Positions 2,426-33,629 of a stretch of 64,000 nt of DNA are shown here, in pieces. The notes under the pieces were generated by a model, which was given only the letters and a program-made list of their open reading frames with translations, was not told the origin of the DNA and made no database searches. The position numbers and the translations under genes are program-made. The DNA lies in the sequence record SRR20825019_1418; one strand, 5' to 3'. How positions within the stretch are numbered: position 1 is the stretch's first letter; every line of letters begins with the position of its first letter.

Positions 2426-2477
2426 CAGGGGCTGGCATCAAAACAACGATCAAACACAATTATTGAAATGAGGGTGG

Positions 2478-3494
2478 GTGGTGAACAACGGATGGTTATA
2501 TAAGGCGGCAGTTGCACGGACGTTGGCGTGGGGTATGGCCATGCTGCTGACTGTGGCCATGCCGGCCCAGGCCGAATGGGTACGTGTGAGCGGTACGGCA
2601 ATGACCACCGCCATAGAGATGGAGTTCTGGACCGAGGATCCGGCCGTGGCCAGCGAGGCAGGAGATGCCGTGCTGGCTTTGTTCGACCGTATCGACCGTC
2701 AGATGAGCCGTTACCGGGAAGATTCCGAACTGTCCCGGGTTAACCGCGAGGCGGCCAACGGACCGGTGGAGGTGAGCGACAGTCTCTTTACGGTGCTTCA
2801 GCAGGCGCTGAGGATTTCTGAATTGAGCCATGGCGCCTTCGACATCAGCTTTGGTTCCATCGGCTACCTGTACGACTTTCGCGCCAGACAACAGCCCTCC
2901 GATGAAGAGCTGGCGGAAGGCTTGGCAAAGGTGAATTACAGATCGGTGGTGCTGGACCCCAGTGCCAATACCGTCCGATTCCTTGATGAGGGGGTGCGGC
3001 TGGATCTGGGTGGCATTGCCAAGGGGTATACCGTTGACCTTGGTATCGACATCCTGAAATCGTTCGGCATTCGTCATGCCCGCTTGAGCGCGGGGGGAGA
3101 CCTGCGGCTGCTGGGTGATAAGCGCGGCAAGCCTTGGATCGTGGGTATTCGGGACCCCCGATCTGAATCACGCAACGCTATGGTTTTGCCACTGACCAAC
3201 GTGGCAGTGTCGACATCAGGCGATTACGAACGCTTCTTTTTTGACGACAACAACGAGCGTGTCCATCACATTCTCTCGCCCGCGACTGGAAAACCGGCAA
3301 AAGGCGTGCAGAGTGTGACCATCCTCGGCGACGACAGCATCACAACCGATGGCTTGTCCACGGCGGTCTTTGTGCTTGGGGCGGCCAAGGGTCTTGGAAT
3401 GGTCAATCGGTTAAAGGGCATCGACGCCGTCATCATTGATGAACAGCGTCAGGTGCATTATTCGGACGGGCTGATGCCGCCGGAAAGGGAGTGA
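2478..3494 (+). CDS. apbE: FAD:protein FMN transferase
   Basis: Signal peptide; AMTT, SELSRVN, DLGGIAKGY, AVSTSGDYER and HHILSPATG motifs; exact start uncertain. Confidence 0.93.
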   Translation: MVNNGWLYKAAVARTLAWGMAMLLTVAMPAQAEWVRVSGTAMTTAIEMEFWTEDPAVASEAGDAVLALFDRIDRQMSRYREDSELSRVNREAANGPVEVSDSLFTVLQQALRISELSHGAFDISFGSIGYLYDFRARQQPSDEELAEGLAKVNYRSVVLDPSANTVRFLDEGVRLDLGGIAKGYTVDLGIDILKSFGIRHARLSAGGDLRLLGDKRGKPWIVGIRDPRSESRNAMVLPLTNVAVSTSGDYERFFFDDNNERVHHILSPATGKPAKGVQSVTILGDDSITTDGLSTAVFVLGAAKGLGMVNRLKGIDAVIIDEQRQVHYSDGLMPPERE

Positions 3495-3503
3495 TGCAAA
3501 AGG

Positions 3504-3537
3504 GGTGTGCGACCGGGCCCGTAAGCCCGGTCACGCC
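3504..3537. terminator. Hairpin between convergent genes, likely an intrinsic terminator
   Basis: GACCGGGC-ccgtaa-GCCCGGTC stem; followed by a short T run on the - strand. Confidence 0.55.
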
Positions 3538-3540
3538 GGG

Positions 3541-5103
3541 TCACACAATCGGTTCGAGGGCGATGAGCCGATCACGGCTGTTTTGATTCCCGAGGCCATG
3601 ATTGGGGAACCGATCGGAGTTCTCGAACATGCCTTGTTCCCCATGCAGGGCCATGTAGTTGAGCAATACCGTCTGCACCAACTGGTTTACGTTGTTGGCC
3701 GCAGGGCTCGAGGCGGTTTCCACGGAGGCGTCCGAGCGCATAAAGCCGATCTGGTTGGTGAGGGCAGTGGGTTGGCCTGCCGGGCTGTAGACCAGGAAGA
3801 AAGACGCAGCCGTCTGCTGGTTGTCGCCTGTCCACTCGCCTTTGCCGCGCCCGGCCATGGATTCGTCCAGCCGACCATTGCTTGATACGGAGCCGTCGCT
3901 GAACACGTACAGCATCAGCGGCGTGCCCGTCCGGTGGGCGTATTCCAGGCAGGCACCCATGCAGCGGCCCGCCAGGTAGTCCCGCTCTTCACCGGTGCCA
4001 CGCTCGCCAGTGTGGTAGTCATAACCACCCAGCGTAACGGTACCGGCACCGGCGTAGCCATTCTGGACCAGTTTCATAACGGCTGCTGTTTTGCGGATTT
4101 CCCGGCCCAGCCGCGAGTTTTCGTTGAACTGGGCTTCGGTGAAAATGCCACCCACGATGTCCGTATCCTGAGATGGATCGATAGAAGACGGATCGGCAAA
4201 GCGTTCGGTCAGGTCTGCGCTTTTAACATAGCCGCAGTTGACGAGGTCCTTCACCACATCGTCTCTGGTGACAAGTGTGGTATCGACATTGTCCAGTTTC
4301 TTGCGGCTGATGCGCTGGATGGACTCCATCACGGCGACGGCATCGTCCTGATCCAGAATGGCGGTCAGGTCGCCCACGTCCACCAGCCCCGAAACATCGC
4401 TCGGGCGGTCAATCTTGGTGGGGCGTACTTGAGGATTGATCAGGCTCATGGGCGCCATGGAGTTGCCGCCACTTTCTGAGCTCTGCGAACCCACAAGTGT
4501 GAGTAGTTCACCGTCAGCGCCCGCCTTGCTGATGCCGTACATCGGGTTATGGGGGTTATTGCCGGTGTCGTTCTCGGAACGGGCGGCAATGATGGCGCCA
4601 TTGATGAAACCACGGGCGGCAATCGACGTGCTGTCTTGCATGCCCCGCAGGAAACCGCTGTCGGAATGGAACGCCAGGCCAAACTCCTGGTTCACGAAGG
4701 CCGGGTCGTTGGGCAGCATCGTGCCGGGCAAGCCCAGCTTGTTGTAGCCGGCCGTGCTCAGGAAGTCGAACTGGCCACCGGATTTGCCCATCAGCACATT
4801 CGAGCCGGCGATGTTGGCACCGCCGGCGAGGTCAAAGCAGATAAAGGGAATCTTGCCCGCGCCTGCGGAGGCGATGCCGCAGGATTCTTTCCAGTCCTCA
4901 AGGTCCGGAGACAGCGCTGCAGCCGCCTGCCGCGGATTGGCGAACAAGCTGAACACGGATGCGCCACAGAGGGTGGCTGCACCGGTCATAAAGCCCTGCG
5001 CGATGAACTCGCGTCGGGTTTTCGGTCTTGAGTGATCGCTGTGCAGGAGAGGTTGATCCGTCGCCAGTGCACGTTTGCGAGAAGGTTTGATATACATGGT
5101 CAA
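3541..5103 (-). CDS. Tat-exported DUF1501-like protein
   Basis: Twin-arginine motif KTRREFI and cleavage site AAA; DLAGGAN, LGGYDYH and VFSDG resemble the DUF1501 motifs LxGG, GGWDTH and SEFGR. Confidence 0.6.
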   Translation of the reverse strand: MTMYIKPSRKRALATDQPLLHSDHSRPKTRREFIAQGFMTGAATLCGASVFSLFANPRQAAAALSPDLEDWKESCGIASAGAGKIPFICFDLAGGANIAGSNVLMGKSGGQFDFLSTAGYNKLGLPGTMLPNDPAFVNQEFGLAFHSDSGFLRGMQDSTSIAARGFINGAIIAARSENDTGNNPHNPMYGISKAGADGELLTLVGSQSSESGGNSMAPMSLINPQVRPTKIDRPSDVSGLVDVGDLTAILDQDDAVAVMESIQRISRKKLDNVDTTLVTRDDVVKDLVNCGYVKSADLTERFADPSSIDPSQDTDIVGGIFTEAQFNENSRLGREIRKTAAVMKLVQNGYAGAGTVTLGGYDYHTGERGTGEERDYLAGRCMGACLEYAHRTGTPLMLYVFSDGSVSSNGRLDESMAGRGKGEWTGDNQQTAASFFLVYSPAGQPTALTNQIGFMRSDASVETASSPAANNVNQLVQTVLLNYMALHGEQGMFENSDRFPNHGLGNQNSRDRLIALEPIV

Positions 5104-5109
5104 CGTCCT

Positions 5110-7647
5110 CTACTGGATCAGTGTCACTGCACTGCCCAGTACGGCTGCGCAGCTTGCTTTGACAACGGTTTCGGTACGGCCGGCTTCGCAACTACCACCA
5201 CCACAGGTGGTGAGTCGTCCCATCAGCGCGTCCAGCTCGGCTTCAATGTCCGCATCACTCGGTTGCGTTGTCAGGCTTGTGCCGACGAACTTCTCCATCA
5301 ACGGCGTTTTGATGAGATCCCGGCCGGCGTCGTCAAACGCAGTGCTCGCATTCTCGCCAAAGTCAAAGCCCGGGAAGAAGGCGTTGCGGCGCGTGGTATC
5401 CGACACCAGAACATCACAGTACTGGATCGCCATCTGGGTAATCGCCATCTGATGGGATGACAGGAAGCCTTCAAGGTCCTCCACGGTCGGTAACTGCTGC
5501 TTAACCGTAGTGAATGTTTCGGCGACGCCCGGCTGGGTGGTCGGAATACCCGTCACCTTGGACATGGACGCATTCACTTCGTCAAACGTCTTCAGGCCGA
5601 TGGCGGAGAATTCCGTGCTACCGGTTTCTGGTGGCTGAGTCGGGACAGGGCCTTCCACTCGAACGTCTGTGTTGCTACCGAGCTGTTCAAAGGTCAGGAA
5701 GAACTGGTCGTTTTCCGGGCCTTCTTCCAGCGCGAGAACCGTGCCGAGTCTTGACAATGGCTGACCGGAGCCTGCTACGTAATCACTGGCATTCAGTGTT
5801 AGATCCAGATTGGCAAACGACTGGCCTACAACCACTTCGCGGCCGTTGATGCCTATTCTCATGCCCTTCAATGGTATACCCGATGGAGACTGGGTCTCGT
5901 CGAGACTGATGAAGAACGGATTTGAGAACAAATAGCCGTAGTTGTCGAACTGGCTGACCTCAAAGACGATAAAGCTTTCCGGCATATCCACCAGGTGGGA
6001 TACGCTGAACAGCAGGAAGAACTTCTGGCCAACGCCCACGTCGTAGTTGGCGGCAACCTGCTCTGCGGTGAGGGCACGGTTGTGGATGGCAAGCATCCTG
6101 ACCGCGCCTTCCCAGGGCGATTCACCGTCCGTCTCATTGCCCAACACCAGGGCGAAACTGTCGTCCCAGTCGGTCAGCAGGCCGGCGGAATCCGGGTCGA
6201 CATCACCGGAGGGGTCGCCATTCACAAAAATTTCGCGGCCACCGTCCGGTGAAAAGTTCACCACCACGTGTTGCAAGGTCGCCTGCAACAGCATGGGGTT
6301 GGCTTCGGTCAGCATTGGATCGTTCTGGTCGGTGGTGGTGCTCCGATGCAGGAACTCGTAGCTCTGCATGTCCTGGCCCAACGTGAAGTTCCGCGCTGTC
6401 GAGGAGCCGGAGTAGGTCACGATGCGGGAGTCTTCCTGGGTGATGTTGCCGGGCACAACCCACGCTTCGATGGCGTATTCGCCGGAGGCGGTCAGCAGGG
6501 TGTGCAGCTTGCGGCTGTCGGCAGTGGAGCCTTGAGCCTTGCCGGCACGGATCATTTCGCCTTCTTCGGTTTCAAAGGCAGGGCCAATATCAATACCCCA
6601 GCCGCCAACCCAGCCAACGTTGCCGCTGAGCGTCAGGTCCAGGGGTGGGGAAATACCGCTGGTATCAAAGGCCGTTGGGCCGTCGCCTGCTTTGAATTCG
6701 TAAAGCGCGATGACGTTGTCTTCGTATCGGCCGCCGGCATTGGCCAACAGACCGTCGTTGGCGAGGTTCAGTGCCTTGCTGGTCACCAGGTTGGACGGGA
6801 TTGGCTCCGGATCCCCAAGGCGATCAATGAAGGCCTGGATTGCAGCCAGCATCTCTGTGGCAGAATCGAGGCACTCAGCATCCCAACAGTTATGACGGTC
6901 GTCTCTCAGCCTTTCTACGAGCCTTGAAGAAGCTTCATCGGTAAGTATCCATTCATCGGTGACCGGATCTTTTCCGTCGTTCAGATCAATGCGGCTTTTG
7001 GACTGATCGTACGCAATGCCGACATTGGAGCTTGCAATGTAGGGTGTCTGGCCGTTGCTGGTGTGGCATTCGCTGCAGTACTGGGTTAGTACTGGGTAGA
7101 CGGTGTTTGCAAAGTCGTCGGTGTCTGACGGAAAGGTCAGTGTGTTGTTCACGTCCTGGATGTTTGGAGCGCGAAGTTCGACCGTTTTAACCGATCCCTC
7201 CGAGCCACCCGCCCAGTTTGAAATGTAGACCGTCAGCAGGTCGGTACAGGCAGTGACGGACGTCGTCCAGCAGTTGTGGCCACCCGCTACCTTGGTCACC
7301 ATCTCGGACTGGGACGGGTCGGACAGGTTAACAATGGTATTGGCCTGGGCGTAGGCAATGTTGATGTCGCCCTCATGCACAAACTGTGGTGACTGGCCGC
7401 CGGCGTTGTGGCAGGCGCCGCACTTGTTCTGGCCAGAGAGCTCATCCCACACGCTGCGCTTGAAATTCAGTACATCGTCGCTGGCGGGGGGCGGGCCACT
7501 ATAGCTAACGGTATTGGAGCCGCCGCCGGTGTTCGGAAGGGCTTCGGTAGACTCGCCACTGTTACAGCCCGCAAGAAAGAGCAGGGCGGCAAAAACGGAG
7601 AACAGCGCAGCGGGGGCTCGGGTTCCTTTACTGATTATGGTTTTCAT
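5110..7647 (-). CDS. Diheme c-type cytochrome lipoprotein with a LamG/concanavalin-like domain
   Basis: Lipobox LAGC; CGACH (7408-7422) and CSECH (7063-7077); LamG-like motifs YAIEAWV, QHVVVNF, EIFVNG and WEGAVRMLAIHNRALTAEQV. Confidence 0.75.
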   Translation of the reverse strand: MKTIISKGTRAPAALFSVFAALLFLAGCNSGESTEALPNTGGGSNTVSYSGPPPASDDVLNFKRSVWDELSGQNKCGACHNAGGQSPQFVHEGDINIAYAQANTIVNLSDPSQSEMVTKVAGGHNCWTTSVTACTDLLTVYISNWAGGSEGSVKTVELRAPNIQDVNNTLTFPSDTDDFANTVYPVLTQYCSECHTSNGQTPYIASSNVGIAYDQSKSRIDLNDGKDPVTDEWILTDEASSRLVERLRDDRHNCWDAECLDSATEMLAAIQAFIDRLGDPEPIPSNLVTSKALNLANDGLLANAGGRYEDNVIALYEFKAGDGPTAFDTSGISPPLDLTLSGNVGWVGGWGIDIGPAFETEEGEMIRAGKAQGSTADSRKLHTLLTASGEYAIEAWVVPGNITQEDSRIVTYSGSSTARNFTLGQDMQSYEFLHRSTTTDQNDPMLTEANPMLLQATLQHVVVNFSPDGGREIFVNGDPSGDVDPDSAGLLTDWDDSFALVLGNETDGESPWEGAVRMLAIHNRALTAEQVAANYDVGVGQKFFLLFSVSHLVDMPESFIVFEVSQFDNYGYLFSNPFFISLDETQSPSGIPLKGMRIGINGREVVVGQSFANLDLTLNASDYVAGSGQPLSRLGTVLALEEGPENDQFFLTFEQLGSNTDVRVEGPVPTQPPETGSTEFSAIGLKTFDEVNASMSKVTGIPTTQPGVAETFTTVKQQLPTVEDLEGFLSSHQMAITQMAIQYCDVLVSDTTRRNAFFPGFDFGENASTAFDDAGRDLIKTPLMEKFVGTSLTTQPSDADIEAELDALMGRLTTCGGGSCEAGRTETVVKASCAAVLGSAVTLIQ

Positions 7648-7653
7648 AATGTC

Positions 7654-8907
7654 CTATTCCCCCCGGCAATACGCGGCAGATTCCGCAAAGGCAGTTTTGA
7701 GGTTGTACCCGCTGCGGAAACTCGTAACGATTTCGCTAATCTTTGAGCGATCGCTATCGTTTGAAGGCTCTCGCAGGCAGACATTGCGGAATACTTTTCT
7801 CACCTGGCACTGGGCAAAAGCGTCGGAATTGGCAAACTCCCGCCCCAGGCTCTTGGCGCCGTTGCCGGAGCCGGGCAGGGAGCCATCCCAGCCCAGGCGC
7901 CGATTGGTGCCGGACCGCCAATAGTTGTCCCAGCCATCGTCCGGCGTCACGTATCCCTGCTCAAAGGTGGTTGAATTGATGTGGTATTTGGCGACAACGC
8001 GGGTACCCGTTTCCGGGTCCACGTCGCTAACAGAGTTGTAGATCAGCCTGCCCAGTTCGCCGTCAGGGTCCGTGTCCGCGTTGTACTGGTAGTCGTAGTA
8101 GGCAAAGGCCTGGGTCATGGGGTCCATGCCGGTATGACAGCCAACGCAGTTGCTGAGGAATACCCGGCTGTCGCCACCCGGGCTTCGCGACACATCCTGG
8201 CGGATGCGGTCCGGTGGCAGGGATACGTCCGCGACCTGCTCCAGGTCATTGCACATGTGGTTGAGCAAGGTAAACCGAAACATGGCGCGGTTGGTGCCCG
8301 CGCTGAAGAACGCCCTCGCTGCGGCCCGGGAGGTGATCACACCGGCCGTGGCGCCCGTGGGCAATTCGGAGTTCAGGCTGGACTGTGTGGTTTGCTCCAG
8401 CACGTTGTCATCACTGAGGGAGTAACCGGAGCGCTCAAGGTCCTCATAGTTGTCGTTGTTCGACGTTGAGTATGCCGAGATGCCGTTCAGGCTGGCGTTG
8501 CCCACATAGAGTATGTCGTCATATAAGACGCGTCTAAAATCATGATTATCCCGCACAATACCGATGACCGTCGCCGTGTAATCATTCAACGGCACGAAGG
8601 GGGACATCGCCTCATTTGTCCATGGTGCAACGAAATTTTTGAGGGTAACATCGTAAAACGCTGGATCTTCCATGGCCGTGTAGGCGGCAGAAACGGCGCC
8701 TGACGCACCATTGTTGGTTATGTTTGCCGCCATCTGATCGAGTACCTCCGGAGAAGGAGGAACACCGGCGATGCGTTCATGGATGCGTTTTGCCTGGTCC
8801 CGCGGGCCAGCGCTTGCGATGGTAGCGTGCGTTCCGACCAAAGCCAGCAGGACAGTGAGTAAAAATGTCCTCTTTATAAGTTGCCGGGTCGTACATAAGA
8901 CTGTCAT
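7654..8907 (-). CDS. Secreted monoheme c protein, DUF1588/DUF1585-like (planctomycete PSCyt3/PSD type)
   Basis: Signal peptide ending ASA; CVGCHTGMDPMTQAFAYYD; C-terminal FAQCQVRKVF; start at 8907 behind GAGGGA. Confidence 0.6.
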   Translation of the reverse strand: MTVLCTTRQLIKRTFLLTVLLALVGTHATIASAGPRDQAKRIHERIAGVPPSPEVLDQMAANITNNGASGAVSAAYTAMEDPAFYDVTLKNFVAPWTNEAMSPFVPLNDYTATVIGIVRDNHDFRRVLYDDILYVGNASLNGISAYSTSNNDNYEDLERSGYSLSDDNVLEQTTQSSLNSELPTGATAGVITSRAAARAFFSAGTNRAMFRFTLLNHMCNDLEQVADVSLPPDRIRQDVSRSPGGDSRVFLSNCVGCHTGMDPMTQAFAYYDYQYNADTDPDGELGRLIYNSVSDVDPETGTRVVAKYHINSTTFEQGYVTPDDGWDNYWRSGTNRRLGWDGSLPGSGNGAKSLGREFANSDAFAQCQVRKVFRNVCLREPSNDSDRSKISEIVTSFRSGYNLKTAFAESAAYCRGE

Positions 8908-9130
8908 GATCGATTCCCTCGATTTCGTTAGCATTCGCACATTAGTACCATTTTACAATTGTTCAAAGTCTAGGCGAGCTATTAACTGCGGTTTTGAGTG
9001 CTGCTCCACGTTATTACATAGCGTTACGTAAAAGGCTTGGAGCACAGGCCCCGTCTCGACTTAGCGTATGTAAATGGATTTTCAGGCCAAACAGGGTTCG
9101 TTGGTGGTGACTAAACATTACGAAAATAAA

Positions 9131-11776: not shown

Positions 11777-11796
11777 TAGGACCTGAACTGTTAACC

Positions 11797-13166: not shown

Positions 13167-13178
13167 TAACAGGAGTCA

Positions 13179-13679: not shown

Positions 13680-13697
13680 CTTGAGGCAGGTGAGTGT

Positions 13698-13937
13698 ATG
13701 AACCCTTTCAAAGCAGTGATGGCATCGGCAATCGTGATCCTAATGACGGCGGGGGCGGCCGGTTGCAGTGACATCAAGCCCTGGGTGAAGCCCTATGAGC
13801 GGGACAAGCTCGCGGACCCGGTCATGAGCCTGAGCCGGCATGGAAAAGCGGACGCCTATATGCATCACGTGTACCAGGCCCGTGAATCCGCAAGGGGGGC
13901 GGAAGGCGGCTCCGGAGGTGGTTGTGGCTGTAACTGA
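13698..13937 (+). CDS. DUF4266 small lipoprotein
   Basis: Lipobox AAGC; VKPYERDKLADPVM; C-terminal GGGCGCN. Confidence 0.85.
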   Translation: MNPFKAVMASAIVILMTAGAAGCSDIKPWVKPYERDKLADPVMSLSRHGKADAYMHHVYQARESARGAEGGSGGGCGCN

Positions 13938-15090: not shown

Positions 15091-15110
15091 CCAGGTCGGG
15101 ACGATTCAAC

Positions 15111-15662
15111 ATGATGACCTTGAAGAACACATTCGCACTGCACATTGTCAGCCTGGCACTGGCGTTCTGGCAGCCGGCAGCCATGGCCCAGGACAATAGC
15201 GAAGCCGAAACCGGCGACGGTGCGGTCTCGTTGAGCGTTGAAGAGCTGAAAAAACAGGTGATCCGCCTGAATCGGGACCTGTTCATTCTGGAAGAGGACC
15301 TGCTGTATCCCGCCAGTACCCAGTTTGCGGTGTTTCTCAGCCTCGACACCGGCGAATTCCTCAAGCTGGATTCGGTGAAACTCAAGGTCAATGACGAAAC
15401 CGTTGCCGCGCACCTGTATACCGAGCGTCAGGCCAAAGCATTGCAGCGTGGCGGTATGCAGCGCCTGCACATCGGTAACCTCAAGACGGGCGAACACGAG
15501 GTAACGGTGTTTGTTGAGGGTATTGGCCCGGATAACCGCGCCTATAAGCAGGCCGCGACCTATCAATTGCAGAAGGATACGGATACCGCTGCCCTGGAGG
15601 TCCGCATCCGCGACCGCTCATCTGATTACCAGCCCGAAGTGGCGATTGTTGAGTGGGAGTAA
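15111..15662 (+). CDS. Secreted hypothetical protein (coiled coil plus beta-rich domain)
   Basis: Signal peptide ending AMA; in operon, overlaps the next gene; no HTH seen. Confidence 0.7.
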   Translation: MMTLKNTFALHIVSLALAFWQPAAMAQDNSEAETGDGAVSLSVEELKKQVIRLNRDLFILEEDLLYPASTQFAVFLSLDTGEFLKLDSVKLKVNDETVAAHLYTERQAKALQRGGMQRLHIGNLKTGEHEVTVFVEGIGPDNRAYKQAATYQLQKDTDTAALEVRIRDRSSDYQPEVAIVEWE

Positions 15663-17689
15663 CGCGGTCCGTGATTGAGTGGCTGAACCGAATGACGACG
15701 GGCGCCCCGGCGGGACTGACTCTTGCCGGTACGCTTGCGGCGTTGCTTCATGGTCCGGTGGCTGTGGGTGATGAACTGCCGCAGCGCGCAAGTGATCCTG
15801 CCTATGGTGTGGCTCTGTATGAGTATTATCAGGGCAATGCGTTTGAGGCGCTGACCCGCCTAAACGTGGCCTCCGCCGAAGGCGGCATCGATGGTCATGG
15901 TGACCATCCGGCCCTCGTAGAGGGCGGCCTGATGCTGTCCTACGGTATGACCCACGAAGCCGGCGCGCTGTTCCGGGAGTTACTGGACGAGAACGCAGCG
16001 GTGGCGCCGGGTACCCGCAACCAGGCCTGGTTCTATCTGGGCAAAGTGTTCTACCTTGAGCAGGATTCGACCGCGGCGCGAGATGCCCTTGAGCGGGTGG
16101 ATGACGAGCTGTTGCAGGACGAAAGCGACGAGCTTTACCACGAGTGGCTGTACCTTCGGGGCCAGTTGGCCCTGTCCGGAACCAGTGGCGAAACCGTTGA
16201 CGAACTGATCGACTCGCTGCCAGAGAGCTCACCCTGGCGTGCTTACCTGCATTACAACCAGGCGGTTGGCATGCTGTCTGAAGGCCAGACGGAAGAGGCG
16301 ATGGACGCTTTGGCCAGCCTCGATAGCTTGCTTGGCGAGCTGCCCGAATTCGAGCCGCCGTTAGCCAACGAAATGTCGGCACTTCGGGAGCGGGTAAAGC
16401 TCTCCATTGGTCGTCTTCATCTCAGCAGAGGTGATTTTGCCGGCGCCATGGCCAGCCTTGAGCAGATCGCCCTCGACGGCGTGTTTTCCGACCAGGCCCT
16501 GTTCGATTATGCAGTTGCAGCCTCTCGCGAAGGAAGGGCGGGCCTGGCGTTGCAAGCGTTGAATACCCTTCAACAACGCCCTCTGTTCACACCCTGGCTA
16601 CAGCAGGTGCCTTATGCCCGCGGCTTCCTGTTCGAGCAGATGGATCGTCAACAGCAGGCGCTGCAGGCGTACCGTGAGGCTGCCAGTCATTACCAGTCAC
16701 TGAGTACTCGCCTGTCGGATGAGCGGGAGCAGCTAACCGAAGCGCGATTGATCAAGGCGCTTCGCTTCGTGCGTGAGGGCGATAGTCCCGGGCAGCCCGG
16801 ATCGATGGACGCGGAGATGGTTCGTCCCGAACCGGGAGAAACAACCGTACTGACCGATGCCTATGGGCGTGTAAAGGTCCGGCCCGGGGATTACAGCCTG
16901 GCTGGATTGTTGGCGACGGAGTCCTTTCAGCTGTCCCTGCGTGATCTGCATGAACTCTATCGGTTGCGCGATTCCCTTGGCCAATGGCAAACGCAGTTGG
17001 AATCCTTCGATATCATGCTGGAAACCCGTGCCCAACAGCGGGAGCAACGTATCCGCGAGACCCGCGACGCACTTGATGCGCTCAACGCGGATCAATGGCT
17101 GGCGCGACAGGCTGAGTACCGCAGCGCTATTGAAGACGCGTTGGCCAGAGAGGATCTGCGCTTCTTCATGACGCAGGAACAGCACGAACTGGCGGACCGA
17201 CTGGCGCAGGTGGAAAAGACCCTGTCGCAACTGCCGGAGGACGAATCCACCCGCAAACAGCGTGAAACCTTCCAGCGAATGAACGCCTATTTTAACTGGC
17301 GCATTGCTGATGATTACGCGGTCAATCGTTGGGCTGCCGAAAAGCAGCTGCGGGAACTGGACCGGGCCATGGAGGTGTTCGTCGATCAGCGCGCGTTGAT
17401 TGAACAGGAGATGGCATCGGGTGGAGAAAATCAGGCCCTGGCAGCCCGGGTAGAGGCCCGCCAAGTCGCGCTGCAACGTTTGCAGGGCGAGTTGGACAAG
17501 GCACTCTCGGCAGCACGAACGGAACTGCTCACCCTGGTGGATACTGAACTGCAGCAACAGAGCCAGGAAGTGCAGGGGTACCTCAGGGCAACCCGTCATG
17601 CAGCGGCGAGATTGGCGGACACGCTTTTCCTTGGTCGCAATGGCGCGGCGGCGAATCCGGCCACCGAAGCGGGAGGTGACCGTGACTAA
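15653..17689 (+). CDS. TPR and coiled-coil periplasmic protein (GltC-like)
   Basis: TPR-like helices (AWFYLGKVFY, YLHYNQAV) followed by a long coiled coil; start uncertain. Confidence 0.7.
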   Translation: MGVTRSVIEWLNRMTTGAPAGLTLAGTLAALLHGPVAVGDELPQRASDPAYGVALYEYYQGNAFEALTRLNVASAEGGIDGHGDHPALVEGGLMLSYGMTHEAGALFRELLDENAAVAPGTRNQAWFYLGKVFYLEQDSTAARDALERVDDELLQDESDELYHEWLYLRGQLALSGTSGETVDELIDSLPESSPWRAYLHYNQAVGMLSEGQTEEAMDALASLDSLLGELPEFEPPLANEMSALRERVKLSIGRLHLSRGDFAGAMASLEQIALDGVFSDQALFDYAVAASREGRAGLALQALNTLQQRPLFTPWLQQVPYARGFLFEQMDRQQQALQAYREAASHYQSLSTRLSDEREQLTEARLIKALRFVREGDSPGQPGSMDAEMVRPEPGETTVLTDAYGRVKVRPGDYSLAGLLATESFQLSLRDLHELYRLRDSLGQWQTQLESFDIMLETRAQQREQRIRETRDALDALNADQWLARQAEYRSAIEDALAREDLRFFMTQEQHELADRLAQVEKTLSQLPEDESTRKQRETFQRMNAYFNWRIADDYAVNRWAAEKQLRELDRAMEVFVDQRALIEQEMASGGENQALAARVEARQVALQRLQGELDKALSAARTELLTLVDTELQQQSQEVQGYLRATRHAAARLADTLFLGRNGAAANPATEAGGDRD

Positions 17690-20561
17690 GCCGGTAATCC
17701 GCAGGCGCCTGGATACCCTTCTGCCAGTTCTTGTCGCAGGCCTCCTCGGGGGCTGCCAGTCGCTTTCAATGCCGGATGTATTCGGCGGTGGGGATGATAG
17801 ACAGCCCCAGCCGGGGACTCTGGCCACTCTTCAATCCATCGAGGAAACCATCGAGCCTGCGCCGGATACCCAGGGCGGCACCAGTGAAGTATCTCTGGGG
17901 GAGGTGATGGACAGTTACCGCGCCTTGTTGCCTCTGTTGGAAGACCCCGCCAAACAGGTTGCCGTACGTCACCGGCTGGCGGACCTGGAATTCCAGCGTG
18001 CGGAAAACAAGATGGTTGAAACCGCAGAGGATGAGATGGCCGGGGCTATTGAAGCCTATGAACAACTGCTGGCTGGGTATCCGGAGCGGCCCGGTAATGA
18101 TCAGGTTCTTTACCAGTTGGCCCGCGCCTACGATCTGCGCGGCATGAGCGAAGAACACCTTGCCACACTGACAACGCTGGTGAATGAGCATCTGGATTCG
18201 CCATTCTGGGTCGAGGCGCAGTTCCGGCGCGGTGACTTGCTGTTCAGTAATCGCCGGTACACCGAGGCTGAACAGGCGTTCCGCACGGTGATCGACGCCG
18301 ACCCGGCCAGAAGGGACGACGCCTCGTTCCTGGTCAACGCCCACTACATGCTGGGCTGGAGCCAGTTCAAGCAGGGGAGTTATCGGGAAGCCCTGTTCAG
18401 CTACATCAATGTGCTGGACCTGGTCATGCCGGAAGAGCAGGACGTGGAATCCGTCGGGCAGGAATACCGCACCATGATGGAAGACCTGTTCCGCGTATTT
18501 GGCCTGTCACTGTCTTACCTGGACGGTGCGGACACCCTGCAGGCCATCTTCCGTGAGACCGGCGAGAAACCCTACGAAATCCTCGTGTATGACCGCTACA
18601 GCGACCTTTTGCTGGAGCGGGAACAGTACACAGACGCCATTGATGTATTCGAGCGCTACATCGATGCGCGGCCACTGAGCCCATGGGCGCCCCGGTACCA
18701 CATGCGTATCATCGACACCCTGGCACAGGCCGGCTTTACCGCTGACATACCGGATCGCAAGGCGGCGTTTGTTCGGGACTACGGCATTCACAGTGCCTAC
18801 CTGCAACAGGCGGATGACGAGACAGCGTTTTATATCGGGCAGCAGCTGGAAGAGCTGATCCCGGAGCTTGCCAATCGCCACTATGTACTGGCGGGCGAGA
18901 CAGAAGGTTTGGAATCGGATGAGCATTATCGTCAGGCGGCGGTGTATTACGAGGCCTTCGCGGATACCTTCCCGGCCCACCCCCGCACACCGGAGATGCT
19001 GTTCCTGCTGGGTGAAACCCATGTAGAACTGGCTCAGTGGCCGGAAGCTATCGAAGCCTTTGAACGTGTGGCCTATGACTTCCCATGGGAGGGAGAACCA
19101 CCCGAACGCGCCGCTGAGGCAGGCTATGCGTCGGTACTGGCCTTCCGCGAATATGCCAAAACCTGGCCCCGTGAGCCCGCTGAAACCTACAATGATTACA
19201 CCGAGTTCCAGCAGCTGAATCGTCAACGATTCGTGAACGCCTTTCCCGACGACCCTCGCTCGGAAGAAGTGCTCTACATTGCCATGCAGCACGAATTCGA
19301 GCGCTATCGCTATGGGCAGGTGGTTGAAATGGCGGATCGCATGATTGCCCGAGTTCCCGCGCCCGGGGCGGATATCCTCACGGAAACCTGGTTGCTGAAA
19401 GCCCACAGCCTGTTTGAGCTGGCTCGATACGCCGAGGCGGAAACCACCTATCAACAGGCCTTGCGCGTCATGGCAGAGGCCGATGAGCGGCGGCCGGATG
19501 TCATTGAAAGCCTGGCCGCGTCCGTTTTCCGTCAGGCGGAAGCGCTGGCGGATGCCGGTGATACCGCCGGAGCGGTTAGTGAATTCCTGCGTGTGGGCGT
19601 GGTTGCGCCCACCTCGGCTCTGAGGGCCAACGCTGAATACGATGCTGCCACCCTGCTGATTGAGCTTAGCCACTGGCAGGATGCCATCGATGTGATGGTG
19701 GCGTTTCGGACCCGCTACCCCGAACACGAACAAATCGATACCCTGCCAGCGCGCCTGGCACTGGCCTACCGCGAGACAGAGCAGTGGGAGAAAGCCGGGG
19801 ATGAGCTGAACAACCTGATTGCGATGGCCACCACGGACGAGGAGAAGCGCGAGAACCTGCTGATCGCCGCGGATCTGTACGAACGTGCGGGAAATACTGG
19901 CAAGGCCATCGACACCTGGCGGCGGTATGCCAATACCTATCCTGAACCACTGGACGTTTACATGGAGGCCGCCAACAGCCTGGCCGGCCTATACGACGGG
20001 ATTGGCGACGACAGCAGCCGCCGTTTCTGGCTGCGCAAGCAGATGGAGACCGTGGACGACAATCCCGACGAGGCGGACGACCGCATGCGTTACCTGGCGG
20101 CCGAAGCTTCGGCGATCCTGGCACGGGAAGCACTGGCCTATTACGACAGCATTCGCCTGACCTTGCCGCTGAATCAAAGCATGGCAGCCAAGACCGAGGC
20201 ACTGGAAGAGGCCGTTACCGCCTACCAGAAAACCGCGAGTTACGGCGTGTCGTCCTTCTCCACCGAAGCCGGCTATCAGATTGCACACATCTACGCGCGC
20301 CTCGGTCGTGACCTGATGGAGTCGGAGCGACCAGAAGGATTGTCGGAGCTGGAGTTATTCCAGTACGAGCTTTTGCTGGAAGAGCAGGCCTACCCGTTTG
20401 AGGACAACGCCATCGACATTCATGAACAGAACGCCAGCCGCGCCCGCAACGGCATTTTCGATGAATGGGTTCAGCGCAGTTACGAAGCCCTGAAAACCCT
20501 GCTTCCGGGCCGCTACAACAAACCTGAAATCACCGTAGAGGTTGTCGATGAGCTGGGTTAG
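17682..20561 (+). CDS. Large multi-TPR lipoprotein (GltD/AgmU-like)
   Basis: GTG start behind GGAGG; lipobox LLGGC; many TPRs (VLYQLARAY, AQFRRGDLLF, AHYMLGWSQFK); C-terminal LEEQAYPFEDNAIDIHE. Confidence 0.75.
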   Translation: MTKPVIRRRLDTLLPVLVAGLLGGCQSLSMPDVFGGGDDRQPQPGTLATLQSIEETIEPAPDTQGGTSEVSLGEVMDSYRALLPLLEDPAKQVAVRHRLADLEFQRAENKMVETAEDEMAGAIEAYEQLLAGYPERPGNDQVLYQLARAYDLRGMSEEHLATLTTLVNEHLDSPFWVEAQFRRGDLLFSNRRYTEAEQAFRTVIDADPARRDDASFLVNAHYMLGWSQFKQGSYREALFSYINVLDLVMPEEQDVESVGQEYRTMMEDLFRVFGLSLSYLDGADTLQAIFRETGEKPYEILVYDRYSDLLLEREQYTDAIDVFERYIDARPLSPWAPRYHMRIIDTLAQAGFTADIPDRKAAFVRDYGIHSAYLQQADDETAFYIGQQLEELIPELANRHYVLAGETEGLESDEHYRQAAVYYEAFADTFPAHPRTPEMLFLLGETHVELAQWPEAIEAFERVAYDFPWEGEPPERAAEAGYASVLAFREYAKTWPREPAETYNDYTEFQQLNRQRFVNAFPDDPRSEEVLYIAMQHEFERYRYGQVVEMADRMIARVPAPGADILTETWLLKAHSLFELARYAEAETTYQQALRVMAEADERRPDVIESLAASVFRQAEALADAGDTAGAVSEFLRVGVVAPTSALRANAEYDAATLLIELSHWQDAIDVMVAFRTRYPEHEQIDTLPARLALAYRETEQWEKAGDELNNLIAMATTDEEKRENLLIAADLYERAGNTGKAIDTWRRYANTYPEPLDVYMEAANSLAGLYDGIGDDSSRRFWLRKQMETVDDNPDEADDRMRYLAAEASAILAREALAYYDSIRLTLPLNQSMAAKTEALEEAVTAYQKTASYGVSSFSTEAGYQIAHIYARLGRDLMESERPEGLSELELFQYELLLEEQAYPFEDNAIDIHEQNASRARNGIFDEWVQRSYEALKTLLPGRYNKPEITVEVVDELG

Positions 20562-21147
20562 GTCATTCCAGGGGTGGACGCGAGTGGGCCTGCTGCTGGC
20601 TGTCGTGCTGGTGGCCGGTTGTGCGTCCTCGCCCAAAACCGACCCGGCAGATGTGGCGGAGGCAGAGCGCCAGGCCCGGGAGGCCGAGTTAACGCAGGAC
20701 TTCAGCGAGGCGGTTGCCTTGCTCAGGGGAGGGGATACCGATAACGCGCGGAACCTGTTTGAACAGATCCATCAGGCCGACCCAGAGCGAACCGGACCCT
20801 TGGCCAATCTCGGCATTATTGCACTGCAAGAGGGCAACCCCGAAGCCGCTGAAGGGTATTTCCAACAGGTGCTTGAGCGCGACCCGCAACACAGCGCAGC
20901 GTTGACCCATCTCGGAGTCATGGCCCGGGAGCAGGGCGAGTTCGAGCACGCTGAAACGCTTTACCGGCAAGCCCTGGAAGCCGATCCGAATCACCTGCCG
21001 GCCATGCTGAATTTGGCCATCCTGCTAGATATCTACCTCGGCCGGCTCGAGGAGGCTTTGCCTCTCTACGAGCAGTATCAGTCGCTGGCGGAAGAGCCGA
21101 ATCCGCGCCTCAAGGACTGGATATTCGATGTCAGGAACCGCTTATGA
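20548..21147 (+). CDS. TPR lipoprotein (GltE/AglT-like)
   Basis: Lipobox VAGC; TPRs LANLGII, ALTHLGVM and AMLNLAILLDIYL. Confidence 0.75.
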   Translation: MSWVRSFQGWTRVGLLLAVVLVAGCASSPKTDPADVAEAERQAREAELTQDFSEAVALLRGGDTDNARNLFEQIHQADPERTGPLANLGIIALQEGNPEAAEGYFQQVLERDPQHSAALTHLGVMAREQGEFEHAETLYRQALEADPNHLPAMLNLAILLDIYLGRLEEALPLYEQYQSLAEEPNPRLKDWIFDVRNRL

Positions 21148-21461
21148 CCGCTAGAAAACACCTACTCAGTCTATTGCTGTTGATCATCGCATTTCCCTGC
21201 GTCGCCCAGGACGGTGTTGTGACGATCGAAGGCACGCGGATCCGGGGCGACCAGGAAGTGCCGACGGTGCTTTACCTGGTGCCCTGGCAGCCTCCCGCCG
21301 TGCAGTCGCTGGCCCGGCCGGACGAGCAGTTGATGCTACAGCGCCCTATTGCGCCGCTGGAGCGCCAGGAATTTCAGCGCCTGGTGTCCTATCATCAGTA
21401 TTTCCGCACCTCCGTGGAGGATGGCAAGGCCTCCGGGGCCACCGATGCAATACCGGAATGA
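21144..21461 (+). CDS. Small secreted protein (possibly GltF-like)
   Basis: Signal peptide; TIEGTRIRGDQEVPTVLYLVPW; ATGA overlap with the upstream gene. Confidence 0.6.
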   Translation: MTARKHLLSLLLLIIAFPCVAQDGVVTIEGTRIRGDQEVPTVLYLVPWQPPAVQSLARPDEQLMLQRPIAPLERQEFQRLVSYHQYFRTSVEDGKASGATDAIPE

Positions 21462-21596
21462 GAACTGCGTCACACGTTGTTTGTGCACATACGCATGTAA
21501 AAACAAACCGCTACAAAGACTTGCGCGAACTTACCCCTGCCGGGGCGGTTGCCGCATACACTAGCCAGCAAATACGGACTATGGAGTGCCCTGAAA

Positions 21597-22310
21597 ATGA
21601 TTGAAACTGCCGTTCGCTTCTTCCAGGAAGGTGGCTTTTTCATGTATCCGATCGCCATCGTGCTGATTATCGGACTCATCGTTGCCGCTGAACGTTACAT
21701 ATACCTGTCTGCCCAGAAGATCACTAATCGTCGTGATTTCAACCGGTTGCACCACATGATTGGTGGTAAGGATCTTAAGGGCGCGCTGAACTACGCTACT
21801 GAGTCTGGCAGTGCCATGGCCTCCATGATCGGTTTCGGCCTCCAGCGCCTGGCCCGTCGCCAGTCCCGGGAAGAGATCGAGTACGCGATGGAAGAGGGGC
21901 TTCTGGAAGTCATGCCCCGCCTTGAGAAGCGTACCCAGTATCTGTCTACGCTGGCCAACATTTCCACGCTGATGGGCCTGCTCGGCACCATCATTGGCCT
22001 GATCGCGGCCTTTACCGCGGTTGCTGCGGCGGACCCGTCTCAAAAGGCGAGCCTGCTGTCCCAGAGTATCTCCGTAGCGATGAACACGACGGCCTTCGGC
22101 CTGATGTCTGCGATCCCGCTGCTGTTGATCCACTCAGTGCTCCAGACCAAGACCAACGAAATCATCGACAGCTTCGAGATGGCCGGCATCAAGGTGCTGA
22201 ACCTGATCACCGACGGAACAGGCGCAAGGCCGCAGGCACCGGCTGCCGCCGCTGCCCGCCCAGCAGAGCCTGCTTCCCGTGCGGCCAACCCCGCCGGGTC
22301 AGTGGCGTAA
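21597..22310 (+). CDS. MotA/TolQ/ExbB proton-channel protein (AglR-like)
   Basis: FFQEGGFFMYPI, STLMGLLGTIIGLI and ISVAMNTTAFGL motifs. Confidence 0.9.
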   Translation: MIETAVRFFQEGGFFMYPIAIVLIIGLIVAAERYIYLSAQKITNRRDFNRLHHMIGGKDLKGALNYATESGSAMASMIGFGLQRLARRQSREEIEYAMEEGLLEVMPRLEKRTQYLSTLANISTLMGLLGTIIGLIAAFTAVAAADPSQKASLLSQSISVAMNTTAFGLMSAIPLLLIHSVLQTKTNEIIDSFEMAGIKVLNLITDGTGARPQAPAAAAARPAEPASRAANPAGSVA

Positions 22311-22334
22311 CGGTTCAATCAGGGAGCTAAAGCC

Positions 22335-22832
22335 ATGAGGCGTAAGCATCGTCGGCTTCGCAGCGAAGCGGACCTGGATATCACACCGTTCATGAACCTG
22401 ATGATCGTGCTGGTTCCGGTCCTGCTGCTGAATATGGTGTTTGCACACACCAGCGTGCTGGAGCTGAATTTCCCAGATGTGGATAGCAGTTCCGTAGAAG
22501 AACAGAAAGAACTCCAGTTACAGGTCGTCATTTTCGAAGACCAGCTTGTGGTGTCCGACAACCAGGGCGGCGTGATCAAGACCATTGCCAACCGCGAAGC
22601 GGCCCACGACTTCGAGATGCTCGGTAAGGTCATGAAGGAGCTTAAGGGCAGGCTCCCGGACAAACGCAACATCATCATTATGCCGTCCAGCGACACCTCA
22701 TATCAGACGCTGGTGTCGGTGATGGACAAGGTGCGCTCTTACGAAGCGGTTGTCGCAGGTGATGTCGTTGAGGCCGAGCTGTTCCCCGAGATCTCACTGG
22801 GCGACGCACCGAAGAGGGCTGAACAGTCATGA
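22335..22832 (+). CDS. ExbD/TolR-family protein, variant lacking the conserved transmembrane Asp
   Basis: DLDITPFMNLMIVLV transmembrane segment; YQTLVSVMD. Confidence 0.85.
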   Translation: MRRKHRRLRSEADLDITPFMNLMIVLVPVLLLNMVFAHTSVLELNFPDVDSSSVEEQKELQLQVVIFEDQLVVSDNQGGVIKTIANREAAHDFEMLGKVMKELKGRLPDKRNIIIMPSSDTSYQTLVSVMDKVRSYEAVVAGDVVEAELFPEISLGDAPKRAEQS

Positions 22833-23329
22833 AAGAGTCTGCGAAAGCCAAACGCCTGAAGCGCCATCATCGGCGGGGCAAACAACAGAGCAAGCTGAAC
22901 CTGGTGTCGTTGATGGACATCTTTACCATCCTGGTGTTCTTCCTGATGGTGAATTCATCCTCCGATGTGCAGGTGCTGAACCAGGACAACGCCATCAAGC
23001 TGCCGGACTCCAGTGCCCAGCAGCCCCCGGGTGATGTGCTCGCGCTGACGGTCACGGACAACGATATCCTGGTGAACGGCCGTGTTGTGATGAAGCGGGA
23101 CGTGCTCCAGGCCTTTAGTGGTCAGGTAGAGCCCGCCCTGAAGGAAGAGCTGGACTACCAGGCCAGCCGCTCCAGTGCTCCGGCACCGGATGCAGGGCGC
23201 CCCATCACCATCCTTGCCGATCGCGAACTGCCCTATGAACTGTTGAAGAAAATCATGTCCACCTGCGTGGACGCGGGCTACGCCAGTATTTCACTGGCTG
23301 TAAACCAGAAAACAGAGCAGGGAGCCTAG
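22829..23329 (+). CDS. ExbD/TolR-family protein (AglQ/AglS-like)
   Basis: LNLVSLMDIFTILVFFL; ILADRELPYELLKKIM...AGYASISLA. Confidence 0.88.
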   Translation: MKESAKAKRLKRHHRRGKQQSKLNLVSLMDIFTILVFFLMVNSSSDVQVLNQDNAIKLPDSSAQQPPGDVLALTVTDNDILVNGRVVMKRDVLQAFSGQVEPALKEELDYQASRSSAPAPDAGRPITILADRELPYELLKKIMSTCVDAGYASISLAVNQKTEQGA

Positions 23330-23331
23330 CT

Positions 23332-24333
23332 GTGGCAGAGTATCGTCAGGGATTGCCCTGGAATCAGGAGGCCGGAGAACGCAAGCGCTTGTTTGCGGTT
23401 GCTACCCTCGTGGTCCCGTTGTTCCTTGTGGCAGCCGCGTACATCACCTGGGTTGAGTTGCCGGAGCAGGATCGCAAAGAGCGTGAAGCCCTGCCGCCGC
23501 AATTGGCGAAGCTGATTGTTGAGAAACAGGAACCGCCACCACCCCCGGAACTGAAAGCGCCGGAACCCGAGCCTGAGCCCGAACTTGAACCAGAGAAGCC
23601 GGAACCGGAAGAGCAACCCGTTGCCGAACCCGAGGCCCAGGTACAGCCGCCCGCGCCGGAGCCTGAGCCAGAACCCGAGCCCCAGGTGGCGGAGAAGCCG
23701 GAGCCAACGCAGCAGGATGTCGAAAAAGCCCGGGAAAAGGCAAAAAACACCGGTATCCTCGCCATGGGCGATGAGCTCTCCAAGCTGAGTGCGCTGGGTA
23801 AATCCGTCAAACTGGATACACCGGCCACCGTCACAACGGCCGAACCAATCGCCCGCAAGACGGGTGATACCCTGGCACAAAAGGCTAACACCGGCCGCAG
23901 CTCCGGCGTGGATGAATCCGGCCTGACCCGCGAAACCCGCGAGGTTGCGCTGGCGGAACGGCAACGAGCCCAGGTAGAGGAAGCGGAAGAAGTGGTCGCC
24001 CAGGCGAAAGCCGCCGAGCGTGAGCAGCAGGCCGCTGCCAGCAAGCGCAGCCGCGAAGAGCTCCGTCGCACCATGGACGCCAACAAATCGGCCATCTACA
24101 GCATCTACAACCGCGAACTGCGCCGCAAACCCTCACTGCAGGGCAGCGTGACGCCGGAACTGGTGATCGAAGAGAATGGGGCGGTCTCAAGCTGTTCGGT
24201 GGTGGAATCCACCCTGAACGAGCCAGCCCTTGAAAAGAAAATCTGCAACCGTCTGCGATTGGTGGATTTCGGCGCCCGCCCGGGTGTCGACAGGACGACT
24301 ATCCGCTATCCGATCGAATTGCTGTCTGGTTGA
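23332..24333 (+). CDS. TonB/TolA-like energy transducer with an AgmX/PglI (GltG)-type C-terminal domain
   Basis: Single N-terminal TM helix; Pro/Glu-rich spacer; C-terminal IYSIYNRELRRKPSLQGSV...IEENGAV...CNRLR. Confidence 0.8.
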   Translation: MAEYRQGLPWNQEAGERKRLFAVATLVVPLFLVAAAYITWVELPEQDRKEREALPPQLAKLIVEKQEPPPPPELKAPEPEPEPELEPEKPEPEEQPVAEPEAQVQPPAPEPEPEPEPQVAEKPEPTQQDVEKAREKAKNTGILAMGDELSKLSALGKSVKLDTPATVTTAEPIARKTGDTLAQKANTGRSSGVDESGLTRETREVALAERQRAQVEEAEEVVAQAKAAEREQQAAASKRSREELRRTMDANKSAIYSIYNRELRRKPSLQGSVTPELVIEENGAVSSCSVVESTLNEPALEKKICNRLRLVDFGARPGVDRTTIRYPIELLSG

Positions 24334-33570: not shown

Positions 33571-33571
33571 C

Positions 33572-33593: not shown

Positions 33594-33629
33594 ACAGGAA
33601 ACAATACAATTAGAAATAAGGGAGTCAGG

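Follow-up and report, generated by a model that had tools for sequence, protein, structure and literature searches.

Nesting of an exported haem-flavin gene block among Gammaproteobacteria with an Agl-Glt-type motor core: a candidate envelope-spanning redox system

Results

Gene content of the locus

Here, we analysed a locus of 19 genes at positions 2478-24333 of a 64,000-nucleotide stretch of DNA (sequence record SRR20825019_1418; hereafter, the window), where genes for a putative proton-driven motor, resembling the core of the Agl-Glt gliding machine of Myxococcus, lie beside genes for exported haem, flavin and thiol proteins (Table 1). Three of the genes are on the minus strand and 15 diverge from them on the plus strand, with neighbours separated by at most 87 bases or overlapping; apbE is convergent with the gene for a protein exported by the twin-arginine (Tat) route. 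An original prediction, made from the sequence without database searches, had proposed that these parts form one trans-envelope machine energised by the proton-motive force (PMF). The gene set from which that proposal started is confirmed: the 19 genes, including those for the protein with the Tat signal, TlpA, DUF4266, DUF3570, three tetratricopeptide repeat (TPR) proteins, ExbB, two ExbD and a GltG-like TonB protein, are where they had been placed, and so are five CxxCH motifs, at residues 76 and 191 of the 845-residue protein, residue 265 of the 428-residue protein, and residues 613 and 755 of the 900-residue protein. All five CxxCH motifs, the CxxC of TlpA and the CxC of DUF4266 are retained in every aligned relative that covers the site.

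The locus divides into two halves. By sequence, the motor half (15111-24333) is a gammaproteobacterial core complex homologous to the Agl-Glt and Nfs machines of Myxococcus; it consists of an ExbB/ExbD/ExbD proton channel, a TonB/TolA-like GltG, GltC-, GltD- and GltE-like TPR proteins, and two small exported proteins. The redox half (3541-15090 plus apbE) is a rigid block whose products are exported redox proteins, namely, the Tat protein, two c-type cytochromes, a lipoprotein resembling the alpha subunit of hydrazine synthase (HZS), two small barrels, and a relay of TlpA, DUF4266 with its CxC, DUF3570 as the predicted acceptor of flavin mononucleotide (FMN), and ApbE. The genes for TlpA and ApbE move between the halves.

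Table 1. Genes of the locus, with positions in the window and the principal sequence evidence
Feature	Position	Strand	Evidence
ApbE (FAD:protein FMN transferase)	2478-3494	+	PF02424, 278 bits
Tat-exported protein, 520 aa	3541-5103	-	twin-arginine motif TRREFI
Dihaem LamG lipoprotein, 845 aa	5110-7647	-	Laminin_G_3, 72.6 bits; CGACH at 76, CSECH at 191; LAGC lipobox
Monohaem exported protein, 428 aa	7654-8940	-	CVGCH at 265
HZS-alpha-like dihaem beta-propeller lipoprotein, 900 aa	9074-11776	+	PF18582 (HZS_alpha middle domain), 61.7 bits
SH3 domain plus small outer-membrane barrel, 250 aa	11797-12549	+	SH3_4, 25.5 bits; OMP_b-brl below threshold; TIGR04565 weak, 31.9 bits
TIGR04565 (OMP_myx_plus) small outer-membrane barrel, 215 aa	12519-13166	+	151.9 bits vs cut-off 60
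TlpA/ResA-type periplasmic thiol:disulfide oxidoreductase	13179-13679	+	Redoxin, 107 bits; WCGPC conserved
DUF4266 lipoprotein, C-terminal CxC	13698-13937	+	PF14086, 80.4 bits; ends CGCN
DUF3570, predicted outer-membrane barrel	13984-15090	+	PF12094, 124 bits
Exported protein, 183 aa, just 5' of GltC-like	15111-15662	+	no Pfam/NCBIfam match
GltC-like TPR/coiled-coil protein, 678 aa	15653-17689	+	NF033756, 22.5 bits vs cut-off 450
GltD-like TPR lipoprotein, 987 aa	17598-20561	+	many TPR families; YbgF/CpoB domain TIGR02795, 99.4 vs 90.1
GltE-like TPR lipoprotein, 201 aa	20542-21147	+	NF033758, 45.8 bits vs cut-off 225; VAGC lipobox
Small exported protein, 105 aa	21144-21461	+	conserved motif TGNQEQP..VPWQ
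ExbB/TolQ/AglR-type proton channel	21549-22310	+	PF01618, 99.3 bits
Two ExbD/TolR/AglQS-type proteins	22335-22832, 22829-23329	+	PF02472, 58.8 and 64.5 bits
GltG-like TonB/TolA-type protein, 333 aa	23332-24333	+	NF033768 (AgmX/PglI) tail, 67.4 bits vs cut-off 40

Co-occurrence of the two halves

The HZS-like protein is always or nearly always accompanied by a GltD-like protein. Among 41 relatives of the nearest genome, seven genomes of the genus encode a GltD-like protein of at least 60% identity, and the same seven encode the HZS-like protein (65-98%) and DUF3570 (76-96%), on one contig and within a few kilobases. Across 301 genomes of 134 genera from the same order (order sample), we found the HZS-like protein in 85 genomes (44 genera), the GltD-like protein in 117 (55 genera), the Tat protein in 72 (39 genera), and DUF3570 in 114 (61 genera) when any match is counted or in 79 genomes at E <= 1.1e-29. 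All 85 HZS-positive genomes are GltD-positive, 84 of them among the matches listed (the GltD and DUF3570 tables give part of their rows) and one, G134, according to the per-genome table. All four markers are present in 67 genomes and GltD alone in 30, with the remaining patterns accounting for 22 genomes in total. Within the class, represented by 201 genomes, one per genus (class sample), the HZS-like protein occurs in 25 and the GltD-like protein in 39, with both in 24, HZS alone in 1 and GltD alone in 15 (Fisher p = 8e-20, a value that ignores kinship). Thus, independent occurrence of the modules, which had been named beforehand as a pattern that would speak against the parts belonging together, is not what we observed.

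In the nearest genome itself (G001, C1:2644795-2650810), the HZS-like gene is broken at residue 695, DUF3570 is spread over two frames and the TIGR04565 barrel gene contains a TGA, which may reflect assembly error or decay of the redox half.

Linkage, rearrangement and split genomes

The halves are also frequently linked. In the order sample, 45 of 84 genomes have the HZS-like and GltD-like genes within 25 kb of each other on one contig, 37 have them on separate contigs, and 2 have them on a single contig but distant from each other; in the class sample, they are 5.4-12.1 kb apart in 18 of 24. A profile scan of one genome per GTDB species yielded 581 confirmed relatives of the HZS-like protein, and the best 80 of these loci, which we studied further, include Marinobacter, Alteromonas, Paraglaciecola, Corallincola, Woeseiaceae, Steroidobacteraceae and Ca. 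Thiodiazotropha. The region from the Tat gene to DUF3570 is spanned in 59 of the best 80, and all 59 contain the complete eight-gene block (Tat, LamG cytochrome, monohaem protein, HZS-like protein, both barrels, DUF4266 and DUF3570). Fifty-one of the best 80 come from named gammaproteobacteria and extend at least 3 kb beyond both ends; core genes are adjacent in 33 of these, downstream of DUF3570 in 21, behind the Tat operon in 11 and in convergent orientation in 1, so that adjacency has been kept through at least three arrangements. Relatives also vary in the location of apbE, which may follow the Tat gene, follow DUF3570 or open the motor operon. Adjacency goes with TlpA: where TlpA is present in the redox locus (40 loci), the core is adjacent in 33, and where it is missing (11 loci), in none. 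The gene order of the window recurs in named cultured strains of Marinobacter, Alteromonas and Paraglaciecola.

Genomes in which the halves are split show where the mobile genes go. In 7 of the 9 split genomes examined (G032, G045 and G322-G326), apbE heads the motor operon, and in G322-G326 TlpA follows it directly; in G031, apbE stays after DUF3570, and in G107 it was found beside neither half. Five genomes with a lone redox block all carry the core elsewhere, in the order apbE, TlpA, the 183-residue protein gene, GltC-, GltD- and GltE-like, ExbB, two ExbD and GltG. DUF4266 and DUF3570 stay in the haem locus of split genomes. Thus, of the four members of a published flavinylation module, two (apbE and TlpA) are encoded with the motor and the other two with the haem genes. 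In split cores, 340-770 bases separate apbE from TlpA and contain no conserved open reading frame (ORF), and there is no apbE near any of the seven lone cores examined (L013, L014, L015, L036 and L122-L124).

The motor half as an Agl-Glt core

The stator genes are clustered with gltC-, gltD-, gltE- and gltG-like genes, the gene set of the core complex, in the same order as in the Agl-Glt core (GltC, GltD, GltE, a small extra gene, ExbB, two ExbD, GltG). Such clusters of Marinobacter had been equated with aglRQS plus gltC, D, E and G and their function called unknown (Luciano et al. 2011, PMC3169522). The protein sizes in the window, 678, 987, 201, 105, 253, 165, 166 and 333 residues in order, parallel Maqu_1814-Maqu_1807 (Table S3 of that paper); in position and size the GltC-like protein matches Maqu_1814, which Luciano et al. 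equate with MXAN_2541, and in size and order the GltD-like protein matches Maqu_1813 (= MXAN_4870). Marinobacter cores appear in the tables of the same paper and M. algicola DG893 proteins in its tree files; that such proteins group with those of M. xanthus is taken from its phylogenies (PMC3169522).

The GltG-like protein has one transmembrane helix, a Pro/Glu-rich linker and, by alignment, a TonB_C-like tail, the only part matched by NF033760 (gliding_GltG; E 3e-12, 45.9 bits vs cut-off 650). The equivalog cut-offs of Myxococcus xanthus GltC and GltE (Table 1) likewise lie far above the scores obtained here. Judged by these scores, the GltC-, GltE- and GltG-like proteins are distant homologues of the M. 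xanthus motility proteins and not those proteins themselves. The predicted Glt homology nevertheless stands, with the GltG tail and the TIGR04565 barrel scoring above curated cut-offs; the accompanying claim that small outer-membrane barrels belong to the ancestral core has to be dropped, as gltA and gltB are placed among the later additions (PMC3169522). Even so, a TIGR04565 barrel pair accompanies the core here. No Pfam or NCBIfam match in the cluster names GltF, H, I, J, K, CglB or AglZ, no search having been aimed at them. A further difference is that the core of the window is tied to a haem/flavin/thiol block, which goes unmentioned in the relevant passages of Luciano et al. 2011 and of the preprint of Islam et al. 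(10.1101/2020.07.22.216333). In Myxococcus, the lipoprotein CglB has been proposed to become exposed when a TonB-box-like segment of GltA/B is pulled by GltG and GltJ (10.1101/2020.07.22.216333); as a possible parallel, the TIGR04565 barrel here is preceded by a conserved N-terminal extension.

Non-delta cores contain one additional small gene, for which Myxococcales have no homologue (Luciano et al. 2011, PMC3169522). The 105-residue protein encoded between the GltE-like protein and ExbB, with homologues at the same place in 8 other loci and the conserved motif TGNQEQP..VPWQ, is probably this gene's product. The gene for the 183-residue protein lies directly 5' of the GltC-like gene in nearly every core examined, across all three core types described below; there is no match in L015. 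A public atlas gives relatives of this protein the automatic name 'AraC family transcriptional regulator'; no Pfam family backs the name, which is likely a propagated misannotation.

Proteins of the redox half

In a profile comparison, the HZS-like protein aligns with the alpha subunit of hydrazine synthase (PDB 5c2v_A) in five colinear segments (E 1.6e-17). Its AlphaFold model (predicted local distance difference test, pLDDT, 69; predicted template-modelling score, pTM, 0.70) retrieves 5c2v_A first in a Foldseek search (E 2e-25, TM-scores 0.49/0.56, identity 15-16%), followed by TolB chains (E ~1e-10), and TolB is also matched in the profile search. The two proteins share a colinear architecture, in which a beta-propeller is joined by a middle domain that contains the first CxxCH and by a C-terminal domain that contains the second, and in the window's family C49, C613/C616/H617 and C755/C758/H759 are invariant among aligned orthologues. 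Unlike the enzyme, the protein scores 59 against a cut-off of 800 for the NCBIfam equivalog NF052339 and has no beta or gamma subunit in the cluster, where, within the cluster itself, no Pfam or NCBIfam hydrazine synthase family matches a neighbour. Thus, although the architecture is shared, nothing suggests the enzyme itself or hydrazine chemistry, as this is a lipoprotein of aerobic marine Gammaproteobacteria; the closest named record, from Marinobacter algicola DG893, has 92% identity. Contigs from two RNA libraries carry 75 different bases in place of 78 bases near the C-terminal end of the coding sequence (11317-11396), probably as strain variation in a variable loop.

The Tat protein has no Pfam match in any of six proteins (the window's and five orthologues), and R30 and R31 of its signal are invariant in 11/11 orthologues. 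It has neither a PDB sequence match nor a Foldseek match at E <= 0.001. The best 50 rows of a VIA-align search with its predicted model (pLDDT 65.5, pTM 0.73) are all sulfatases, phosphatases, mutases or phosphoethanolamine (PEtN) transferases (Z 8.6-11.8), so that an alkaline-phosphatase-superfamily fold is supported at the level of the model. Planctomycete PSCyt/PSD cytochrome-like proteins are paired with DUF1501/DUF1552 Tat proteins. The locus resembles such pairs in having a Tat protein of phosphatase/sulfatase fold beside CxxCH proteins, including one with a weak PSD2 signal: the 428-residue family matches PSD2 below threshold only (17-21 bits vs cut-off 25.8), in 3 of 7 members scanned, the window's included. 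All Pfam matches of this kind are sub-threshold or absent, so that membership is not established.

The gene for the SH3-domain barrel directly adjoins the TIGR04565 barrel gene in the related loci examined. In the flavinylation relay, DUF4266 ends in GCGCN in 12/12 aligned sequences. The DUF3570 family is flavinylated by ApbE at two [S/T]GA[S/T] motifs, in a system of unknown role (Meheust et al. 2021, PMC8238504). A motif scan found no such canonical motif in the DUF3570 of the window; residues 58-61 are S-A-A-S, and S58-x-A60-S61 is invariant in 12/12 orthologues, x being glycine in 2/12 only. Flavinylation of DUF3570 is accordingly a prediction here. Two other potential targets, SGAT at residue 97 of the 105-residue protein and TGAT at residue 195 of the 428-residue protein, were dismissed as chance occurrences because neither is conserved.

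As in the clusters described by Meheust et al. (PMC8238504), ApbE, DUF3570 and DUF4266 with its CxC occur together with a thioredoxin-like member. The present module departs from those clusters in its S-x-A-S motif, in its thioredoxin-fold member, which retains CxxC and matches Redoxin, AhpC-TSA and Thioredoxin_8 rather than PF13899, and in its setting between haem proteins and a motor, where it can be split over two loci. A full-length DsbD (DsbD_N, DsbD_TM and a thioredoxin-like domain) is encoded at 54055-55986 on the minus strand, about 30 kb from the cluster and unlinked to it; DsbD would be the expected electron donor of a TlpA-type protein, and its absence from the cluster is shared with 316 clusters reported by Meheust et al. 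(PMC8238504).

A paralogous motor lineage

In a second lineage, represented by Marinobacter G003 and G016, GltD identity is about 35%; these cores include the barrel pair and, immediately following GltG, a paralogue of the HZS-like gene, and they lack the flavin and Tat genes. Judged by gene positions alone, this order recurs in G024 and G184/G220 (same genus) and in three further families (G051/G102, G063/G111 and G162). Three core types can be told apart in the genus: redox-linked (GltD at least 60%), with its own HZS-like paralogue and barrels (~35%), and lone (~30%). Relatives in the genus (L009, L011/L012, L013 and L014) have up to three paralogous Glt-type cores per genome. In a FastTree phylogeny of 46 GltD-like proteins (the window's plus the 45 of 46 assigned ORFs that were long enough), adjacent and split cores are interleaved, and the well-supported branches force at least four changes of state; the long branches of L015, L016 and L017 make the deep parts of this tree unreliable.

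Transcription signals and other genes in the window

A scan of 2300-22000 for promoters and terminators was uninformative (0 promoter-like sites vs 6.2 expected; 17 terminator-like sites vs 16.3 expected). Contigs of 4 RNA libraries from 3 studies span 2400-22399, and single contigs bridge DUF3570, the gene for the 183-residue protein and the GltC-like gene; as such contigs also cross the divergent promoter and DNA may have been present, they demonstrate neither transcription, nor operon structure, nor expression level.

Elsewhere in the window, genes for a cbb3-type cytochrome oxidase occupy 41782-49559 on the minus strand (ccoN-like COX1, 48057-49559; FixO, 47433-48041; FixG, 44789-46222; FixI-type P-type ATPase, 41782-44232). 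A MalT-like LuxR regulator (29752-32517, minus strand) adjoins a plus-strand group at 32770-37391 encoding a C39-peptidase-like protein, a 336-residue ORF, a FadL/TodX-type outer-membrane protein and a MalM-like protein. A GH13 alpha-amylase-family enzyme at 643-2313 (minus strand), just under the cut-off of the NCBIfam 'beta-galactosidase BglA' model (840.9 vs 900), is unrelated to the cluster.

Discussion

On balance, we lean towards the view that the region encodes one envelope-spanning, co-inherited system with two genetic halves, in which the stator powers a step at the outer membrane. Co-inheritance is indicated because the redox block is nested within core-bearing genomes, adjacency persists through rearrangements, and split genomes mostly have apbE, accompanied or not by TlpA, at the start of the motor operon; together with the Glt homology, these observations sustain the part of the original prediction according to which the components behave as one system. 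Its further proposals, that the PMF would serve to export, assemble or energise haem or flavin proteins at the surface and that the system might perform extracellular electron transfer, are conjectural. All physical contacts, the direction of electron flow and the substrate are what we infer from the observed gene content, homologies, co-occurrence and linkage. In the model that we propose, the proton-driven stator would act, through GltG and the TPR scaffold, on an outer-membrane set consisting of the barrel pair and the dihaem propeller lipoprotein, which we regard as the minimal partner set because it is common to both paralogous motor lineages examined in detail. The stator may thereby power a step for which the outer membrane offers no energy source: the haem lipoprotein may be exposed or cycled, or its contact with a substrate may be gated. 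DsbD, TlpA, DUF4266, flavinylated DUF3570 and the haems would deliver or remove electrons, with the Tat enzyme and the two cytochromes handling electrons to or from a substrate.

Several observations weigh against this view. Neither an experiment nor a structure-based contact connects the halves, which lie 108 kb and 3.1 Mb apart in two complete genomes and are not adjacent in 18 of the 51 informative loci. The core occurs without the redox markers in 30 of 301 genomes, so that the motor does not need the redox block, and one genome of the class sample (G369) has a partial HZS-like match (residues 39-491 in a 630-residue frame) without GltD. Related genomes are not independent observations, and the presence of GltD was judged from searches that scored 2 to 4 candidates per genome, so that copy numbers are lower bounds. 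The canonical flavinylation motif is missing from the window's DUF3570, and the lipoproteins may face either the periplasm or the surface. When the GltG tail (residues 236-333) was modelled together with the TIGR04565 barrel (residues 28-215), the predicted complex scored 0.02 against a mark of 0.34, in a run that did not use our own alignments, and is evidence neither way.

An unlikely alternative is energised uptake, whereby a TonB-like core would use GltG to open a barrel (DUF3570 or the small barrels) and import a scarce redox-active substrate, e.g., a metal, which the haem, flavin and thiol proteins reduce or process in transit. In its favour, ExbB, ExbD and the TonB_C-like tail are present, the N-terminal extension of the TIGR04565 barrel could be a TonB box, and DUF3570 gene clusters that include a VIT1 iron transporter have been described, with proposed roles in iron assimilation (Meheust et al. 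2021, PMC8238504). However, Pfam and NCBIfam searches of the cluster reveal no TonB-dependent receptor plug or barrel, no inner-membrane transporter and no binding protein; barrels of 215 and 250 residues are small for a gated channel, and three large TPR proteins are not a feature of TonB uptake systems. The same stator could instead belong to a Tol paralogue with a role in outer-membrane tethering or remodelling, with the HZS-like propeller in the place of TolB and with haem and flavin genes that only tune or maintain the machine, which would then have no redox output of its own. There is a parallel with TolQ-R-A-B and CpoB: a TolQ/TolR-type stator whose ExbB has TolQ as its best NCBIfam match, a TolA/TonB-like transducer, a propeller whose model has TolB as its next-best PDB match after 5c2v and whose profile matches TolB as well, and a YbgF/CpoB-type domain above cut-off in the GltD-like protein. 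Nevertheless, we deem this scenario improbable, more so than uptake, given that the cluster lacks Pal or any OmpA-like peptidoglycan-binding protein, that the TolQ, TolR and TolB equivalogs match far below their cut-offs (TIGR02796, 60 vs 221; TIGR02801, 34 vs 127; TIGR02800, 16.7 vs 343), and that the added haem and flavin proteins, with five invariant haem sites, a Tat enzyme and a dedicated ApbE, would be a heavy outlay for a sensor.

That two unrelated systems are mere neighbours in this genome is disfavoured by the data and appears extremely improbable. The halves are indeed separable, as witnessed by the 30 cores without the block and by the many genomes in which the block lies far from the core. 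Yet the block without the core was found in 0 of 85 and only 1 of 25 genomes, adjacency persists in three arrangements, split genomes have apbE and TlpA in the core operon, and a paralogous lineage repeats the pairing.

A literature search found no paper joining a Glt-type core to haem or flavinylation genes, although the supplements of Meheust et al. may list some of the loci. A paper on TonB in Teredinibacter concerns ttpC-type TonB2/3 clusters and a different system, and PMC5615132 mentions the DUF families outside its main text only. What is new here is the nesting of the redox block in core-bearing genomes, the partition of apbE and TlpA, the paralogous lineage with the same pairing, and the recognition that the motor is the Agl-Glt core.

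The gammaproteobacterial Glt core has been cited since 2011 as the ancestor of the motility machine, its function being unknown (PMC3169522; 10.1101/2020.07.22.216333); Islam et al., again calling the function in Gammaproteobacteria unknown, consider that the core might suffice for protein secretion (10.1101/2020.07.22.216333). We tentatively raise a further possibility, doubtful at this stage, that the original job of the Agl-Glt core was to power an outer-membrane haem-flavin redox module, as a PMF-energised machine for redox reactions or for exposing redox proteins, and that the gliding and spore-coat machines of Myxococcus are later re-uses with new cargo. If true, this would be a kind of system not described so far.

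The comparative data tie together two open problems, the function of the Glt core and the role of DUF3570 flavinylation. Because named cultured strains carry the cluster in the same order, deletions of the motor can be tested directly for their effect on the localisation of the haem and flavin proteins. The function of this motor in non-gliding marine bacteria thus gains a concrete candidate, along with a named minimal set of partners.

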